Assembly (NCBI GenBank): GCA_024695235.1
Contig: JAILIP010000006.1
Location: 7,378-71,377, forward strand
Direction: 5' to 3'
DNA: 64,000 nucleotides
Origin: Bacilli bacterium
GTDB lineage: Bacteria > Bacillota_I > Bacilli_A > RFN20 > CAG-826
How positions within the stretch are numbered: the first letter of the stretch is position 1; the number at the start of each line of letters is the position of its first letter. The position numbers and the translations under genes are program-made. Shown piece by piece: positions 4,599-62,042 of this stretch. Below the pieces are notes generated by a model, which worked only from the letters and a program-made list of their open reading frames with translations, was not told the origin of the DNA and searched no databases.

Positions 4599-5369
4599 TT
4601 AGTTAGCCTCCTTTCTTGAAGTTAATTTTGTTTCTTTTTCAACATCAACCTCTGGTTTTTCTTGAGCAACGAATAATGTTGTTAAGAAGACAAACACCAA
4701 GGATTGGATGAATGATGAGAAAACATCAAAGTATGCATGTAGTAATGGAGTGGCGATTGGAACAAAGAAAAGTTCTCCTTGTGTCCCAAAGCCTAAGCCT
4801 GCCCCGAATATCGCAGCAGAGGCATTACCAAGGCCCCAGTTAACTAAAGTTAATAAAACCCATCCCACAAGCGCGTTACCAAAAAGACGCAATGAGAGAG
4901 ATAAAAGTGGAGCCCACATACTTAGTAAGTTAATTGGTAAAAAGAACGGAAATGGTTCAACGTAACGTTTGAAGTATTTCCAGTGATTATATCTAATAGC
5001 GGTAAAGTGAATGAGTAAGAAAGTCACTAATCCTAGTGATAATGGTACTGGTAGATATGCCATTGGGGTTGGTAAACCAGTAATACCAATGATGAAGTTA
5101 GAGAATACAAATAGGATGATTCCTAAAAGGATACCTCCAAAATTTTCAAAACCTTCACCCATATTTTCTTCGACAAAACCATCGAGCTTTTCAACAGCCC
5201 AATCAGCAACTAAAAGAATGCCTTTTGGTCGTTTCGTAGGATCAGCGTGTCTAGCAATCGCACCAACGATAATCATAAAAATGGCAAGAACTAAACATAA
5301 GGCGACACAAACAATCGTCTCTAGATTAGGAGCAAATTTAAGATTTTCTGGTCCGATGAGATTGCCCAT
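4599..5369 (-). CDS. atpB: F1Fo ATP synthase subunit a
   Basis: 256-aa polytopic membrane ORF with the stator arginine motif LSLRLFGN. Confidence 0.92.
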   Translation of the reverse strand: MGNLIGPENLKFAPNLETIVCVALCLVLAIFMIIVGAIARHADPTKRPKGILLVADWAVEKLDGFVEENMGEGFENFGGILLGIILFVFSNFIIGITGLPTPMAYLPVPLSLGLVTFLLIHFTAIRYNHWKYFKRYVEPFPFFLPINLLSMWAPLLSLSLRLFGNALVGWVLLTLVNWGLGNASAAIFGAGLGFGTQGELFFVPIATPLLHAYFDVFSSFIQSLVFVFLTTLFVAQEKPEVDVEKETKLTSRKEAN

Positions 5370-5812
5370 TATTTTTCCTCATCCTCTTCTTTTTCACTTA
5401 TAGTGACAATGGACTTTTTGTTCTTTAGCATCACAGCGATGACAACTATTTGCATAGGCGTGTATGCGATTAAAAGTCCCCAGATTGCATTCTTAAATGC
5501 AGGGACTGGTTCAATCTTGCCTAAAAAACCATATGAGAATATAGCGACTACAAGTAGTCCAACTAGGAACAACGCCATTCTTGAAAAATAGAACAACAAA
5601 AATTGATATGTCTTTAGATTCTTTAATGCAACTTCACTGCCCTTATAAAGGAGATAGATGTTAACAATCTCAATTAGAGAGCCAATTCCAACGCCGATTA
5701 GCCATCCTGGTTGATGCGCTACAAAAAGTGGAATGAGGGCAAGTAAAGCTAGTGCTACTGAGACAATAGCAGCAATAACTAGCATTTTTTGGAGTTCACT
5801 TAGTTTTTTCAT
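5369..5812 (-). CDS. atpI: ATP synthase protein I-like small membrane protein
   Basis: 147-aa ORF with 4 hydrophobic segments. First gene of the atp operon; its stop overlaps the atpB start. Confidence 0.6.
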   Translation of the reverse strand: MKKLSELQKMLVIAAIVSVALALLALIPLFVAHQPGWLIGVGIGSLIEIVNIYLLYKGSEVALKNLKTYQFLLFYFSRMALFLVGLLVVAIFSYGFLGKIEPVPAFKNAIWGLLIAYTPMQIVVIAVMLKNKKSIVTISEKEEDEEK

Positions 5813-5850
5813 CGCGTGTACCTACATTATGTAAATTATGTATGCGCAAA

Positions 5851-7799: not shown

Positions 7800-9437
7800 A
7801 TGTCATTTAAATTACAATACCTTGGCAAAGAAAAAGAGTTTGATAAGAATGTCAAACTCCTCGACTTAATTGACAACAAAGATAAAAGCATCATCGCTGC
7901 TCGTGTTAACAACCGTGTTCGTGAGTTAACATACGAAGTATACTACGATGCAAAAATCGAATTCATCACCGTTAAAGATGTCGATGCTATTAAGATTTAT
8001 GAATCTTCACTTCGCTTCGTCATCGCGATGGCGTTTGCTCGTGTTTATCCAGATGTCAAAATTAGACTTTGCTATAACGTTTCTCGTTCAATCTTCGTCC
8101 AATTATTAGAAGGACAAAAGAGCACACCAGAAATGGCTGAAAAGATTGAAAAGGAAATGAGAAAAATCGTCGAAGCCGACTATCCACTTAAACGCTTTGT
8201 CGTTAGTAAAGAAGAAGCTAAAGACATCTATGTTAAAAACCACCTCGAAGATAAACTCGCAATTCTTCAATATCGTCCAGAAAAGACCATCCATCTTTAT
8301 GACTGTGATGGCTACTTGAACTATATGTATTCACATATGGTTCCATCCACTGGATACTTAAAAGATTTTGCTGTTAGATTCTATCATCCAGGTATCATTG
8401 TTCAATATCCACGTGCAGAAGCCTGTGGAAAGATTCCTGAATTCGTTGACGCTCCAACATTCGGTAAGACTCTTAAAGAATCACACGAATGGGGTGTTAT
8501 CGCTGGTGCAGACTCAGTTGCAGGCATCAATGCTCATATTAAACGTGATGGTGTAATTGACTTTATTCAATTATGTGAAGCACGTCATAATAGAATGCTC
8601 GCTCAACTTGGCGACATGATTGAAAGCGATATGGAAAATATCAAACTCATTTGTATCGCTGGTCCATCAAGTTCAGGCAAAACAACATTCGCTAATAGAC
8701 TTAGAGTAGAACTCCTCTCAAGAGGACTTAAACCAGTTCGTATTTCTATTGATGACTACTACCTACCAAAGTCACAAGCTCCAAAAGATGAAGATGGAAA
8801 ACCAGATTTAGAGAGTATCGAAGCTCTTGATATTGAAGGTTTCAACAAAGATATGCTCGCCCTTATCTCTGGTGAAGAAGTTCAACTTCCAAAATTCGAT
8901 TTCAAACTTGGACATCGTGTTCCAGGTAGAGTTCTCAAAATGGGTGAAAACGAACCAATTATCATTGAAGGTATCCACGCCTTAAATGAACGTATGACAA
9001 CACTCATTCCAAAGCATCAAAAGTTCAAAATCTTCATCGCTCCACAAGCTCAAATTAACTTAGATAATACCAACCCAATTTCAATTACAGACTTACGTCT
9101 ACTTCGTAGAATTGTCCGTGATTACCAATTCCGTGGTGCATCTGCTGAAGAAACAATGTCCATGTGGCCAAGCGTTAGAAGAGGCGAATTCAAGTGGATT
9201 TATGACACTCAAGAAGGTGCTAATTATGTATATAACTCCATGCTCTCATATGAATTATGTGTCATGAAGAAATATGCAATGCCACTTCTTCAAGCAATCG
9301 AACAAGAAAATCCATACTTCCCAATCGCTGAAAGACTTATCAGAATGCTCAAGCACTTTGATGATATGCCAGATGAATGGGTACCATGTAACTCCCTTAT
9401 GAGAGAGTTCATCGGTGGATCTTGCTACGCTGACTAA
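7800..9437 (+). CDS. Uridine-kinase/PRK-family P-loop kinase fused to an N-terminal TGS/ThrRS-like domain
   Basis: P-loop GPSSSGKTT followed by a udk-like block. The N-terminal ~280 aa are TGS-like. Start set at the ATG at 7800, preceded by GGAGGA. The track start at 7746 is TTG. Confidence 0.7.
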   Translation: MSFKLQYLGKEKEFDKNVKLLDLIDNKDKSIIAARVNNRVRELTYEVYYDAKIEFITVKDVDAIKIYESSLRFVIAMAFARVYPDVKIRLCYNVSRSIFVQLLEGQKSTPEMAEKIEKEMRKIVEADYPLKRFVVSKEEAKDIYVKNHLEDKLAILQYRPEKTIHLYDCDGYLNYMYSHMVPSTGYLKDFAVRFYHPGIIVQYPRAEACGKIPEFVDAPTFGKTLKESHEWGVIAGADSVAGINAHIKRDGVIDFIQLCEARHNRMLAQLGDMIESDMENIKLICIAGPSSSGKTTFANRLRVELLSRGLKPVRISIDDYYLPKSQAPKDEDGKPDLESIEALDIEGFNKDMLALISGEEVQLPKFDFKLGHRVPGRVLKMGENEPIIIEGIHALNERMTTLIPKHQKFKIFIAPQAQINLDNTNPISITDLRLLRRIVRDYQFRGASAEETMSMWPSVRRGEFKWIYDTQEGANYVYNSMLSYELCVMKKYAMPLLQAIEQENPYFPIAERLIRMLKHFDDMPDEWVPCNSLMREFIGGSCYAD

Positions 9438-9453
9438 TCATTAATAAAAATTA

Positions 9454-9478
9454 GAAGGTCGAAAGGCCTTCTTTTTTT
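9454..9478 (+). terminator. Intrinsic terminator after the kinase gene
   Basis: Stem GAAGGTC / GGCCTTC with a GAAA loop, followed by T7. Confidence 0.8.
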
Positions 9479-9665
9479 AAATTTAATATAGTTGATAATA
9501 AATAAGGAAGTTATACTTCCTTTTTCTTTGCAAAGCTAGATTTGTTCGATTTGAGACTAATTCGAAAATATATCGTGTATATTAGATGTGTCAAAGCAAA
9601 GACATTAAAACTCGAGAATGGATACCTCCAGGATATTAAAAATTTAATAGAAAGGAGGTAAGTCT

Positions 9666-9752
9666 ATGAGAAATCATACGGAACTGGAGAGTGCTCTGAT
9701 TCTTCTATGTCTTCTCTTGTTTGTCATACTGCTGCTGCGGATATGCAAATAA
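9666..9752 (+). CDS. Candidate type I toxin-like small hydrophobic peptide A (28 aa)
   Basis: AAAGGAGGTA RBS 7 nt upstream. Peptide MRNHTELESALILLCLLLFVILLLRICK has a polar head, a single hydrophobic helix and a basic tail. Too short to appear in the ORF track. Confidence 0.5.
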   Translation: MRNHTELESALILLCLLLFVILLLRICK

Positions 9753-9802
9753 AAAAATAGACCCATAAGGGTTGACTGAAGTCCTGAAGGTCCATTCTTT
9801 CT
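9751..9802 (-). ncRNA. Candidate cis-antisense RNA A (putative antitoxin), ~50 nt
   Basis: Extended -10 TGCTATAAT on the minus strand (reverse complement of 9809-9817). Hairpin ACCC/GGGT (9761-9772) plus a U-run complementary to the A-run at the toxin stop codon. Ends are approximate. Confidence 0.35.
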
Positions 9803-9901
9803 GTCTTTATTATAGCACTATCACGTCAAAGTTAAAGACGTTAAAACTCGGAATCGATTACCTCTGGCCATTAAACAATCTTAATGAAAGGAGGTACGTG
9901 C

Positions 9902-9982
9902 ATGAAACAATTAAGTGAACTTGAGATTGTGCTCTTCACTTTGGTTGTCATCATCTTTCTATTTATTGGCTCTGCTAGATAA
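9902..9982 (+). CDS. Candidate type I toxin-like small hydrophobic peptide B (26 aa)
   Basis: AAAGGAGGTA RBS 7 nt upstream. Peptide MKQLSELEIVLFTLVVIIFLFIGSAR shares the (T/S)ELE head with peptide A. Confidence 0.5.
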   Translation: MKQLSELEIVLFTLVVIIFLFIGSAR

Positions 9983-10038
9983 AAAGAAAAATCGCCTGTA
10001 AGGCGCCTGACAAGTGGCTTGAGGGGTCGATTCTTCCT
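9981..10038 (-). ncRNA. Candidate cis-antisense RNA B (putative antitoxin), ~58 nt
   Basis: Extended -10 TGATATAAT on the minus strand (reverse complement of 10045-10053). Hairpin CGCC/GGCG (9993-10005) plus a U-rich run abutting the toxin B stop codon. Ends are approximate. Confidence 0.35.
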
Positions 10039-10101
10039 GTCATTATTATATCACCACACGTTCTAAAGACAAGGGAACGAATCAAAAAGGCACATAAGTG
10101 C

Positions 10102-11184
10102 CTAATTAATTTTACCGAATACTTCTTTTTCTTTTAGATAGATATTCTTGAGATTTGTGTAATACACACTCTTCATGATCATGAAGCGTTTGTGTTCTTC
10201 TTCAGATACTGATTTTAGATACATCTTCGAGAAGATGTCTTCTAGTCTAAAGAATGATTCGTATAGATTGATAATTGCGATGTGGAAGAAATATGCATCG
10301 CGTGAATAGATTAGAAGTGGCGATGAGTGAGCAATCTCACTAGCCATCTCGTATGTCTTTGAATATTGGCTAAGTCCTGCAAGACGTTCCACTCCATCGC
10401 GGAAATTAAATTTGAACATTGGATCATCTTTGTAGTTTGGAATAGCAATTAACCAACCGTATTCAATGAATTTCTTCATATCTTTGCTCTTGAGATCCAA
10501 AGCCTTCATTTCTTCTTTTATCTTTACAAAGATACTATCGACTTTTTCTTTGTCTTGGATAGCTCCACGGAACGCCATAGTGTATTCCATATGTTTTAAA
10601 TATTCTTCAACTAATGGTTTCCCGTATTTAGTGAGCAGCACCAAGATACATTCACTTTCATGGAGTGTTCTCCATGTGGAGAAAGCTTCTGTTTCAAAGC
10701 CTTGTGTCATTAATGAGGTGATAGCCTTACACATGGCAAGTCCTTTATAAAGGATATCCACCACTAATGTTTCGCTTGGTTTTCTTTTAAGTGCTCTATT
10801 AAGAACGCCTAATGTGAAGTTAAGATATGTCTCAAGAGTCGAAATTTGAGGAGCAAACTTGCTAACTTGAGTTGTGTTTTTATATGAAAGATGCTCATTT
10901 GTGAAATATTTATCAAGGGCAATGGATGCTACTTTGCCTAAATATACTTCATCATCTTCTTTAAAATCTGGCTCATTATCTTTGATAAAGCCATATTCAT
11001 TGACGATATATAAAATTAAAACAACAGGGTTTAAAGGAACAACACGACCAAAAACGTTGTTTTCAATTAGCTCTTTAGCGCCTTCATCAGCAACTTCATA
11101 AGCTTGATAAACATAGTCTTTATTTAATTTAGGATTTACGCGTAAGTCTTCATACACGCGATCGAATTGTTCTTTTGAGATCAT
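10102..11184 (-). CDS. Hypothetical cytosolic, apparently all-alpha protein (360 aa)
   Basis: Long intact ORF whose stop lies within a hairpin plus T-run (10084-10103). Its start codon lies 1 nt downstream of the glpK stop codon on the minus strand. No motif I can assign. Confidence 0.6.
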   Translation of the reverse strand: MISKEQFDRVYEDLRVNPKLNKDYVYQAYEVADEGAKELIENNVFGRVVPLNPVVLILYIVNEYGFIKDNEPDFKEDDEVYLGKVASIALDKYFTNEHLSYKNTTQVSKFAPQISTLETYLNFTLGVLNRALKRKPSETLVVDILYKGLAMCKAITSLMTQGFETEAFSTWRTLHESECILVLLTKYGKPLVEEYLKHMEYTMAFRGAIQDKEKVDSIFVKIKEEMKALDLKSKDMKKFIEYGWLIAIPNYKDDPMFKFNFRDGVERLAGLSQYSKTYEMASEIAHSSPLLIYSRDAYFFHIAIINLYESFFRLEDIFSKMYLKSVSEEEHKRFMIMKSVYYTNLKNIYLKEKEVFGKIN

Positions 11185-11185
11185 A

Positions 11186-12673
11186 TTATTTTCTTTCTGG
11201 TTTAAACATCATAGCAGATTTAACTGCTAAGGCCCAACCATCACATCTTCTTTTCGCTTCTTTTAAAGACATCTTAGGAGTGTATGTCTCTTTATATTCG
11301 TGTGTCTTATGAATTTCATTCATATTCTTCCAATATCCACTCTTAAGACCTGCTAAATAGGCAACACCTAATGCGGTTGTTTCTAAGCATGCTGGTTTTT
11401 GAATATTGATTTGAAGAATGTCGCTTTGGAATTGCATGAGGATATTAGATGCAGTTGCACCTCCATCAACTTGTAGGGAAGTCATATGAATTCCGGATTC
11501 AGCTTCCATTAAATCAAAGACATCTTTAGATTGATAAGCGATTGCTTCGAGTGTTGCGCGTATAATGTGCGACTTATTTGTCGCGCGCGTCATACCAAAC
11601 ATTGCTCCGCGGACATCATCATCCCAATATGGTGTGCCTAGTCCAACAAAGGCAGGAACAAAATACACTCCATTGGAACTTGATTCTTTTTTGGCTTCAG
11701 GATCACATTCTGGTGCTTCACGAATGACTTTGAGTCCGTCTCTAAGCCATTGAATGGCAGCACCTCCAATAAAGACACTACCTTCAAGAGCGTAGTTAAC
11801 TTTTCCATCAAGTCCCCAGGCAATAGTCGTGAGCAATCCTTTCTTTGAAAGGACAGCTTTTTCACCTGTATTTAAAAGCATGAAGCAACCAGTTCCATAT
11901 GTATTTTTAGATTGACCAGCAAGGAAACAGTTATGTCCAAACAAAGATGCTTGTTGGTCCCCTGCCACTGCCATGATATGAACTTTGGTTGAGAAGAAAC
12001 TCACTGGCCCATAATCATAACTAGATTCACATACTTTTGGAAGCATGATTTCAGGGATATTAAAGATTTTTAATAAATCTTTGTCCCATTTGAGTTTAAA
12101 GATATTGTAAAGCATTGTTCTTGATGCATTTGTCACATCAGTTAAATGCTTTTTACCATTGCTTAGTTTATAGATGAGCCAGCTATCGACTGTACCGAAC
12201 ATGAGTTCTCCAGCTTCCGCTCTTTTTTGACCATCTTTGATATGGTCTAGAATGAAACGAATTTTACTAGCGGAGAAATATGGATTAATAAGTAAGCCAG
12301 TTCTTGAATGAATAAGTTCTTCTTTATCAGATACCGCTTCACAAATATCGACTGATTGTCTTGATTGCCAAACAATCGCATTATACACAGGATTTCCTGT
12401 AGCTTTATCCCATACAATTGTGGTCTCTCTTTGGTTAGTGATACCAACAGAATCGATCTGATTCCAGGTGATATTTGATTTAATCATTACTTCGGATATG
12501 ACGTCTACTACTGAAATGAATATTTCAGTTGCATCACTTTCAACATATCCTTCATGTGGATAAAGGCATTTAACTTCACGATTCGCCATCGCGATTTTAT
12601 GACCACCTTTATCAAATAAAATGGCACGTGATGATGTAGTGCCTTGATCAATAGCTAAAACATACTTATTCAT
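11186..12673 (-). CDS. glpK: Glycerol kinase
   Basis: 495 aa, FGGY family. N-terminal AIDQGTTSSRAILFD and conserved GlpK blocks throughout. Confidence 0.96.
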   Translation of the reverse strand: MNKYVLAIDQGTTSSRAILFDKGGHKIAMANREVKCLYPHEGYVESDATEIFISVVDVISEVMIKSNITWNQIDSVGITNQRETTIVWDKATGNPVYNAIVWQSRQSVDICEAVSDKEELIHSRTGLLINPYFSASKIRFILDHIKDGQKRAEAGELMFGTVDSWLIYKLSNGKKHLTDVTNASRTMLYNIFKLKWDKDLLKIFNIPEIMLPKVCESSYDYGPVSFFSTKVHIMAVAGDQQASLFGHNCFLAGQSKNTYGTGCFMLLNTGEKAVLSKKGLLTTIAWGLDGKVNYALEGSVFIGGAAIQWLRDGLKVIREAPECDPEAKKESSSNGVYFVPAFVGLGTPYWDDDVRGAMFGMTRATNKSHIIRATLEAIAYQSKDVFDLMEAESGIHMTSLQVDGGATASNILMQFQSDILQINIQKPACLETTALGVAYLAGLKSGYWKNMNEIHKTHEYKETYTPKMSLKEAKRRCDGWALAVKSAMMFKPERK

Positions 12674-61380: not shown

Positions 61381-61456
61381 GGATGTTTAGCTCAGTTGGG
61401 AGAGCATCGCCTTTACACGGCGGGGGTCAGGAGTTCGAGCCTCTTAACATCCACCA
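61381..61456 (+). tRNA. tRNA-Val(UAC)
   Basis: Acceptor GGATGTT/AACATCC, anticodon loop TTTACAC, encoded CCA. Confidence 0.88.
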
Positions 61457-61476
61457 TTATCTAAAAAAGCGTATGT

Positions 61477-61560
61477 GGAGGAATAGCGAAGCGGCCAAAC
61501 GCGGTTGACTGTAAATCAATTCCTTAGGGTTCGGTGGTTCAAATCCACCTTCCTCCACCA
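61477..61560 (+). tRNA. tRNA-Tyr(GUA)
   Basis: Acceptor GGAGGAA/TTCCTCC, anticodon loop CTGTAAA, long variable arm, encoded CCA. Confidence 0.88.
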
Positions 61561-61567
61561 CTCTCAT

Positions 61568-61643
61568 TGGGGTGTAGCCAAGCGGTAAGGCAACAGACTT
61601 TGACTCTGTCACTTCGCTGGTTCGATCCCAGCCACCCCAACCA
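61568..61643 (+). tRNA. tRNA-Gln(UUG)
   Basis: Acceptor TGGGGTG/CACCCCA, anticodon loop CTTTGAC, encoded CCA. Confidence 0.88.
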
Positions 61644-61645
61644 TT

Positions 61646-61676
61646 AGATTGACGCGTAGAATGTCAGTCTTTTTTT
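61646..61676 (+). terminator. Intrinsic terminator after the Val-Tyr-Gln tRNA cluster
   Basis: 8-bp stem AGATTGAC / GTCAGTCT followed by T6-7. Confidence 0.75.
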
Positions 61677-61766
61677 ATTCTTTTGTATAAAAAAATCAAA
61701 AAATTGTAGCATATTATATTTACATGTGAGATAATAACAAAGCAATTTTATATAAATTGCGTAAGT

Positions 61767-61843
61767 CTCCCCGTAGCTCAGTTGGCTAGAGCACTCGACT
61801 TTTAATCAAGGGGTCGGACGTTCAAATCGTCTCGGGGAGACCA
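61767..61843 (+). tRNA. tRNA-Lys(UUU)
   Basis: Acceptor CTCCCCG/CGGGGAG, anticodon loop CTTTTAA, encoded CCA. Confidence 0.85.
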
Positions 61844-61851
61844 TTTAAAAA

Positions 61852-61939
61852 GCCCAGGTGGCGAAATTGGTAGACGCAAGGGACTTAAAATCCCTCGAGT
61901 GAATAACTCATACCGGTTCAAGTCCGGTCCCGGGCACCA
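61852..61939 (+). tRNA. tRNA-Leu(UAA)
   Basis: Acceptor GCCCAGG/CCCGGGC (one A-C mismatch), anticodon loop CTTAAAA, long variable arm, encoded CCA. Confidence 0.85.
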
Positions 61940-61968
61940 TATCAATTACGCCGCCTTTTAAATTACAT

Positions 61969-62042
61969 TGGGGCGTAGCCAAGTGGTAAGGCAGCGGACT
62001 CTGAATTCGCGAGCACTGGTTCGATCCCAGTCGCCCCAGCCA
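61969..62042 (+). tRNA. tRNA-Gln(CUG)
   Basis: Acceptor TGGGGCG/CGCCCCA, anticodon loop CTCTGAA, encoded CCA. Confidence 0.85.

Follow-up and report, generated by a model that had tools for sequence, protein, structure and literature searches.

We analysed a window of 64,000 nucleotides (the whole stretch presented above, from contig JAILIP010000006.1 of a Bacilli bacterium) and found, in one of its intergenic gaps, two small tandem cassettes, unit A (9589-9820) and unit B (9824-10056), which look like members of a new, previously undescribed type I toxin-antitoxin family in uncultured gut or rumen-type Bacilli. Each unit is probably a type I toxin-antitoxin-like cassette, a reading in which we infer both its transcription and its toxicity. 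An undescribed RNA-controlled toxin-antitoxin family is likely because each unit combines what would be a locked mRNA for a membrane peptide of 26-28 residues with the gene of a convergent antisense RNA. The strongest regulatory signal, and a new feature, is a co-varying complementarity between the leader and the 3' untranslated region (UTR) of each unit.

The two units are diverged repeats of about 232 nucleotides, 75% identical in alignment, with the motif GTCAAAG at 9590 and 9825; this bears out the tandem arrangement described in the first-pass annotation of this DNA. A hidden Markov model (HMM) built from units A and B matches each of them at E-values of 1e-65 to 1e-67, a self-match that shows only that the repeat is unambiguous. 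The conserved 30-nucleotide block at the 3' end occurs twice in the window and never in shuffled sequence. When we scanned the window and 80 related loci (about 1.4 Mb) for a strong Shine-Dalgarno (SD) sequence followed by a short hydrophobic open reading frame (ORF), the small ORFs (sORFs) of units A and B were the only matches, under criteria set post hoc, once the finding was known.

A looser leader pattern (TTAAAACTCG, then TACCTC, then GAAAGGAGG) matched three metagenome contigs, L081, L082 and L083. Between them they hold four complete units, namely L081a, L082a and the tandem pair L083a and L083b, and the order of parts is the same in all. An HMM built from all six units matches the metagenome units at E-values of 1e-43 to 1e-60, again as a self-match. 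The family sample thus consists of six units, two from the window and four metagenomic, on four contigs; for the 3' block it rises to eight copies with the inclusion of two orphans. The type I-like architecture proposed by the first-pass annotation held up in these homologues, with one refinement: the predicted antisense RNA skips the body of the ORF, so that the layout is not nearest to that of txpA/RatA.

The plus-strand mRNA would be about 215-225 nucleotides long and begin with a terminal hairpin, P1. In predicted folds this hairpin forms the 5' end of the mRNA of unit A (UGUC-AAAGCAAA-GACA, 9589-9604, plus strand) and has its counterpart in unit B (CGUC-AAAGUUAAA-GACG, 9824-9840, plus strand). 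A compensatory change between the two stems had already been pointed out, TGTC/GACA (9589-9592/9601-9604) against CGTC/GACG (9824-9827/9837-9840). It recurs across the six units, where the four base pairs of P1 show compensatory changes at two positions (U-A/C-G/U-G and A-U/U-A). P1 may protect the 5' end of the mRNA, an idea borrowed from par RNA I and its upstream helix. A putative -10 box for unit A, TATATT (9578-9583, plus strand), read from the sequence, ends 5 nucleotides before P1; the first units on L081, L082 and L083 have the boxes TTGATT-17-TATAGT, TATAAT and TAAGAT, respectively, all ending 7 nucleotides before P1. Between P1 and the anti-SD arm lies a 10-nucleotide linker, UUAAAACUCG (9605-9614 and 9841-9850, plus strand), which is invariant, being identical in all six units despite near-saturated synonymous sites in the ORFs. 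We found by eye no consistent pairing partner for it in the mRNA or the antisense RNA, and it may be a site for a protein, an RNase or ribosome standby.

Following the linker, the anti-SD arm, which we call X (AGAAUGGAUACCUCCAGGA at 9615-9633 in unit A, GAAUCGAUUACCUCUGGCCA at 9851-9870 in unit B, both on the plus strand), can pair locally with the SD or with a 3' UTR element described below. An apical hairpin separates arm and SD (9634-9649 in unit A; 9869-9886, CAUUAA-ACAAUC-UUAAUG, in unit B; plus strand); it folds in all six units with a different sequence in each. The SD sequence itself, AAAGGAGGUA (AAAGGAGGTA in the window), occupies 9651-9660 and 9887-9896 on the plus strand, and its GGAGG core lies 7 nucleotides 5' of the ATG codons at 9666 and 9902. 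Sequestration of this SD by the upstream arm had been suggested from the pairs TACCTCC 9623-9629/GGAGGTA 9654-9660 and TACCTC 9859-9864/GAGGTA 9891-9896. Both pairs are present, and the SD is sequestered in every leader fold: all six units keep an anti-SD:SD helix of 7 bp, and the SD has a probability of being unpaired of 0.00-0.03 in leader-only folds (0.00 in unit A). The leaders of the window fold with z-scores of -4.2 and -1.8. In silico, the leader therefore has the fold of a toxin-type mRNA that would block translation; because X buries the strong SD in the leader hairpin, the nascent transcript is predicted from folding to be untranslatable.

The sORFs lie where the first-pass annotation had placed them, sORF A at 9666-9752 (28 amino acids, MRNHTELESALILLCLLLFVILLLRICK) and sORF B at 9902-9982 (26 amino acids, MKQLSELEIVLFTLVVIIFLFIGSAR), both on the plus strand; those of the metagenome units are all 29 amino acids long (MEGNSKELIKLVKIALLCLLLCLLVFLIN, (M)KDDCKELLKLLKITLICLLLCLLGLLIR, MKDDYKELIKILKITIICLLICLLGFLMG and MNYNSKELSTILKIVLLCLLLSLLTLLAK). 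Aligning sORF A with its 29-residue homologues requires an internal gap, and only M1, E7 and L8 are invariant. The peptides, of 26-29 residues, have a polar head, one hydrophobic stretch of 15-16 residues and a tail of 1-4 residues, and all six are devoid of proline. Among the four 29-codon ORFs of the metagenome units, synonymous sites are near saturation (pS 0.58-0.88), non-synonymous differences are few (pN 0.15-0.33), and pN/pS ranges from 0.19 to 0.39. The sORF is under purifying selection and evolves as coding sequence, and the conservation of both sORF and leader pairing, on which the original proposal depended, is found in the four metagenome units. Divergence is much greater in the ORFs than in the leader RNA, which must therefore be under a strong constraint of its own. 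That the peptides belonged to no toxin family within recall had been remarked before, and database searches agree: neither Pfam and NCBIfam (E-values up to 10) nor PADLOC returned a toxin or any other family for the peptides, and Rfam gave no known antitoxin. Membrane toxicity of the peptide would follow by analogy with its class.

On the minus strand, the 3' block of each unit contains a predicted promoter and a predicted terminator. In unit A these would delimit an antisense RNA of about 56 nucleotides (9748-9803, minus strand) with an inner hairpin inside a long closing helix and with its U-run across the stop codon; its fold has an energy of -17.1 kcal/mol (z -2.9), which makes the minus-strand fold the more stable of the two strands by 6.9 kcal/mol. 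The antisense RNA of unit B would be about 60 nucleotides long (9980-10039, minus strand; -17.3 kcal/mol, z -3.0) and end with a terminator found by our scan (CGCCTTACAGGCG plus U-run). Both RNAs match our covariance model, of which they are themselves training sequences. We could confirm the extended -10 boxes that had been noted on this strand, TGCTATAAT (9809-9817) and TGATATAAT (10045-10053); the latter is part of a promoter called at 10045-10072, TTGTCT-16-TGATATAAT, with 10 of 12 matches and an upstream TG. The TATAAT is exact in all eight copies of the 3' block and is preceded by TGn in five, while a generic scan calls a minus-strand promoter in four copies and a terminator in two. This conserved promoter would drive a convergent RNA of about 55-65 nucleotides, antisense to the whole 3' UTR.

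The closing helix of this RNA joins its purine-rich 5' end, AAGAAYGGAGCC, with GGCUYCUUUUUU. The short GC hairpins recognized earlier (ACCC/GGGT, 9761-9772; CGCC/GGCG, 9993-10005) are indeed there, but they are only the inner part of this longer helix. Five of its pairs show two-sided changes; among its G.U pairs, one never varies and several more are common. On the plus strand the invariant G.U would read as a C.A mismatch, and the other G.U pairs likewise become mismatches; five of the eight copies fold better on the minus than on the plus strand. An A-run follows the stop codon in all six units, and the U-run is its complement, so that the A-run is best explained as the template of the minus-strand U-tract. 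The body of the ORF lies outside the predicted RNA, which extends over the 3' UTR and the stop codon.

The leader and the 3' UTR are linked by sequence. The anti-SD arm X nearly duplicates the 5' end of the predicted minus-strand RNA; put differently, it shows complementarity to the last part of the 3' UTR, an element that we call X' (UCCUGAAGGUCCAUUCUUU, 9782-9800, in unit A; GGCUUGAGGGGUCGAUUCUUCC, 10016-10037, in unit B; plus strand). X' holds an SD-like GAGG. The predicted X:X' duplexes reach -24.7 kcal/mol (z -4.3) in unit A and -29.4 kcal/mol (z -5.2) in unit B, and -25 to -32 kcal/mol (z -4.3 to -6.4) over the six units, with the cognate partner best or near-best. The core of the pairing co-varies: unit A has AUGGA/UCCAU, unit B AUCGA/UCGAU and the metagenome units ACGGA/UCCGU, and unit-specific extensions run on across the anti-SD. 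Full-length folds contain a long-range helix between the 5' and 3' ends in all six units. In four of these (unit B, 0.89, among them) the anti-SD pairs with X' rather than with the SD at a probability of about 0.9, and blocking the 3' UTR in the fold returns the probability of an unpaired SD to 0.00-0.10. We also considered a par-like trans pairing, in which the antisense RNA would bind the SD arm with its 5' end; it is weak (z +0.9 to -3.1) and is not relied on here.

How would such an arrangement be wired? The most likely wiring, which we put forward tentatively, is a relay of three steps, in which X' frees the SD, the antisense RNA masks X' and X re-locks the SD. In the finished mRNA, X' would strip X off the SD and translation would be licensed. 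The antisense RNA and X' would then form a perfect duplex, upon which X would return to the SD and translation would be switched off; RNase III would probably cut the duplex as well. If the cassette or its antisense RNA were lost, the peptide would be made. We are rather less confident of a more novel idea, namely that the antisense RNA avoids the ribosome-binding site (RBS) and acts beyond decay by sequestering X', a 3' UTR 'anti-anti-SD' activator, through mimicry of the leader arm.

Several observations weigh against this account. In unit A and in L083a the anti-SD stays on the SD, and only GAAYGGA:UCCRUUC forms over the long range. Even where the anti-SD is captured, the SD is unpaired with a probability of only 0.12-0.24, so that folding by itself does not settle in which direction the 5'-3' helix would act. 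On the plus strand we found no canonical terminator, so that X' can only be presumed to lie within the mRNA. There is no good -35 box for the plus-strand promoter of unit A, and the second unit of each tandem pair is without a clear plus-strand promoter. The folds of several antisense RNAs are no better than those of shuffled sequences (z -0.8 and +0.05). Finally, since only six units on four contigs are available, covariation counts are small and the units are mutually related.

The first two of these observations are what would be expected if the leader-3' UTR helix kept the full-length mRNA compact, stable and untranslatable by folding it back on itself, as in hok and aapA1, with the antisense RNA acting mainly through a 3' duplex and RNase III decay, like RatA or SR5, rather than through re-locking of the SD. 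The minimum free energy structures of unit A and L083a add the GAAYGGA:UCCRUUC helix beneath the SD:anti-SD pairing, thereby extending the lock, and the SD is never mostly free in any full-length fold. We nevertheless find this alternative, the main rival, less likely than the relay. In each of the six units X', which holds the SD-like GAGG, shows complementarity to the anti-SD itself, and an element that mimics the SD cannot sequester it; moreover, in four units the anti-SD is predicted to exchange the SD for X'. Binding of the antisense RNA would also open a lock of this kind, which would be an odd design for an antitoxin.

The distribution of the cassette appears patchy. The pattern AAAGACNTTAAAACTCG-N8-TACCTC has no match in the representative genomes of 185,579 species, and blastn found none in plasmid and phage collections. 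Among viral contigs, one pattern gave three matches, which the unit HMM rejected as chance, and two other patterns gave none. A covariance-model search of related genomes, which had been suggested at the outset, brought no further copy to light: in 80 syntenic loci of related metagenome-assembled genomes (MAGs; about 1.4 Mb), nhmmer and two covariance models found none, the weak nhmmer matches having E-values of 1-8. A protein search with the six peptides concatenated returned nothing at E-values up to 10, and exact-protein look-up of three ORFs of the window, including a 32-residue extended form of sORF B, found no record. A third match of the HMM in the window (5761-5848, E-value 0.047 with nhmmer) overlaps an AtpI-like gene and was judged to be chance. 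This gene (5369-5812, minus strand), upstream of a gene resembling that of the ATP synthase a subunit, encodes a membrane protein of 147 amino acids whose start, MKKLSELQKML, resembles the MKQLSELEIVL of sORF B; this likeness, too, is probably chance.

Two copies of the 3' block stand alone, at L081:3146-3210 and L081:3241-3302 (minus strand), each with a perfect TATAAT, the closing helix and a U-run, and no cognate leader, SD or sORF was found for them anywhere on contig L081. They could be orphan antitoxin-like small RNAs or relics of decayed units. Directly 3' of unit L081a, at L081:2899-3008 (plus strand), we observed a degenerate P1-like start (TTGACAAAGGCAAG), a promoter call (TTGACA-18-AATCAT) and a strong terminator (GGCCACACAATGTGTGGC plus T-run) without any ORF; this may represent a unit in decay or else an independent small RNA. 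About 1.4 kb away on the upstream side of the L081 unit, two overlapping ORFs of 87 and 92 amino acids (L081:702-1240, minus strand) look like a candidate RelB/DinJ-YafQ type II toxin-antitoxin pair, a label given by reading their sequences. On L082, a transfer-messenger RNA (tmRNA) gene (L082:821-1214; tag DNSYMRANVGSQALCAA) ends about 100 nucleotides upstream of the unit, and an ORF for an XRE-type helix-turn-helix fusion lies 3' of it. tmRNA genes are a classic integration hotspot.

The insertion site in the window can be compared with that of relatives. The flanking 563-amino-acid uridine-kinase-like gene has its best relatives, 85% identical in protein sequence, in uncultured Bacilli, Erysipelotrichaceae-like and 'Mollicutes' MAGs, where the usual order is the kinase-like gene, a DUF5677 gene (minus strand) and glpK (minus strand). 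In most syntenic relatives the spacer between the kinase-like and DUF5677 genes measures about 50-130 bp, with a single terminator, versus 665 bp in the window, and in a few it holds other cargo; the two-unit array is hence an insertion at a variable site. Some relatives have two tandem lipoprotein genes or a 907-amino-acid ATP-binding cassette (ABC) transporter fusion at this place (L002:1923-2740, L004:11708-12562 and L003:11733-14456). This intergenic site is a hotspot for variable cargo, and the genomic context fits a mobile module. The DUF5677 gene itself (360 amino acids, 10102-11184, minus strand; no PADLOC match) keeps its synteny across relatives and therefore lies outside the inserted cassette. 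Between the terminator of the kinase gene (9453-9472) and unit A there is a perfect 8-bp hairpin, AAGGAAGTTATACTTCCTT (9504-9522), with T-runs on both sides, which may mark the left edge of the inserted segment. Elsewhere in the window, an Rfam scan shows a cluster of six transfer RNA (tRNA) genes (61381-62039, plus strand) and five more scattered tRNA genes.

Tandem copies, orphan antisense genes and variable insertion sites fit a selfish addiction or defence module. Could the peptide instead be a non-toxic small membrane protein under cis-antisense control, for instance a subunit that regulates or assists a membrane complex and is produced under certain conditions only? In favour of this possibility, non-toxic regulators are common among small hydrophobic proteins, and the peptides match no toxin family. 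We consider it improbable all the same. [quoted passage not shown] That there is no antisense RNA at all, the 3' block being a 3' UTR and terminator that clamps the 5' end of the mRNA for stability and the TATAAT being incidental or serving the next plus-strand unit, is very improbable: the box is AT-rich and near-palindromic, so that the plus strand reads (T/C)ATTAT, it lies just upstream of the next unit in tandem pairs, and for three of the eight hairpins the minus-strand fold has no advantage over that of the plus strand (a difference of at most 0.5 kcal/mol, or a worse fold), but the exact TATAAT, with or without TGn, is also kept in terminal units and orphans that have no unit downstream, a T-run of 5-8 nucleotides follows the hairpin on the minus strand only (plus-strand tails being poor), the conserved G.U pairs are strand-specific, and the orphans persist with no mRNA to serve.

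If the toxin-antitoxin reading is true, the type I class would gain a new peptide and RNA family in uncultured low-GC gut or rumen-type Bacilli. Such loci are invisible to annotation because their ORFs are shorter than 30 codons and no profile exists for them. The co-varying X and X', targeted by an antisense RNA, offer a testable model of how an RNA bound at the 3' end may switch an RBS some 150 nucleotides upstream, something which, to our knowledge, has been addressed experimentally so far only for bsrG/SR4. A three-way relay between the SD, the anti-SD arm, an SD mimic in the 3' UTR and an antisense copy of the arm would, if confirmed, be a design undescribed in type I families, and would mark out a new family in uncultured Bacilli with reduced genomes. 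For a wider search, the six aligned units and the two covariance models can serve as seeds.

We found no report of a type I system in these lineages in the open-access literature, and none of the Rfam type I antitoxin families, RNA II included, was detected at E-values up to 10 in window positions 8500-11500 or at the gathering score in the whole window. In layout, the closest known system is par (fst/RNA II) of pAD1, from a family of Enterococcus and other Firmicutes; it has convergent promoters, a toxin mRNA of about 230 nucleotides, a very short antisense RNA and a shared 3' hairpin and terminator (PMC7472228; PMC8594479). In par, too, a stem-loop sequesters the SD, a helix stands at the extreme 5' end of the mRNA and the antisense RNA lies outside the ORF (PMC7472228; PMC8594479). 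In their predicted form, our cassettes share the convergent promoters, the short antisense RNA, the common 3' hairpin, the SD stem-loop, the 5' helix and the lack of ORF overlap, a likeness of architecture only. The recurrence of RBS-region sequence inside the antisense gene is another common trait; here the plus strand carries the SD arm and X' as direct repeats. In Fst peptides the hydrophobic domain holds a PXXXG(C) motif and the C-terminal tail is charged (PMC7472228), whereas the present peptides have neither this motif nor the long charged tail of Fst. The pairing differs as well: that of the antisense RNA with the SD in trans is weak here, and the strong, co-varying one is intramolecular, between leader and 3' UTR.

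This layout is nearer to par than to txpA/RatA because the predicted antisense RNA does not extend beyond the 3' UTR and the stop codon. The antisense RNAs of txpA/RatA and of BsrE, BsrG and BsrH overlap the 3' part of the ORF (PMC8594479), while the RNA predicted here ends at the stop codon, which places our units outside these families. SprA1/SprA1as (PepA1) of Staphylococcus aureus resembles our units in having an antisense overlap at the 3' end, outside the ORF. Outside this overlap, SprA1as interacts with the RBS region of its target. Trans complementarity to the RBS is weak in four of our six units, and there is no similarity between the peptides. In SprA1/SprA1as, the antisense RNA overlaps the 3' end and not the ORF, and the interaction takes place outside the overlap (PMC8594479). 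With Hok/Sok, which is defined by a Hok_Gef peptide, a mok leader ORF and binding of Sok at the 5' end, only the end pairing is analogous, as there is no Hok_Gef match in Pfam and the antisense gene here is at the 3' end. In hok/Sok and aapA1/IsoA1, the ends of the toxin mRNA pair and mutually exclusive folds govern translation. The pairing between the 5' and 3' ends of the mRNA is common to these systems and ours; theirs, however, are Gram-negative, their antisense RNA binds the 5' region and their 3' element locks the mRNA until it is trimmed. In our units, the antisense RNA would target the 3' element itself, which mimics the SD and not the anti-SD.

The cassette logic comes closest to that of bsrG/SR4. 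Like this system and its relatives txpA/RatA, bsrE/SR5 and yonT/SR6 of Bacillus subtilis, the cassettes have a Firmicute host and a predicted cis-antisense RNA over the 3' end. The B. subtilis antitoxins of this group are about 180-220 nucleotides long. Those predicted here are much shorter, and there is no similarity in peptide or RNA sequence. SR4 binds the 3' end of bsrG mRNA; it both promotes decay and, by this binding, lengthens the SD-sequestering helix from 4 bp to 8 bp (PMC3834814). In both cases binding at the 3' end would alter structure at a distant SD; the difference is that, in our units, the link between 3' UTR and SD takes the form of an explicit SD mimic, complementary to the anti-SD arm.

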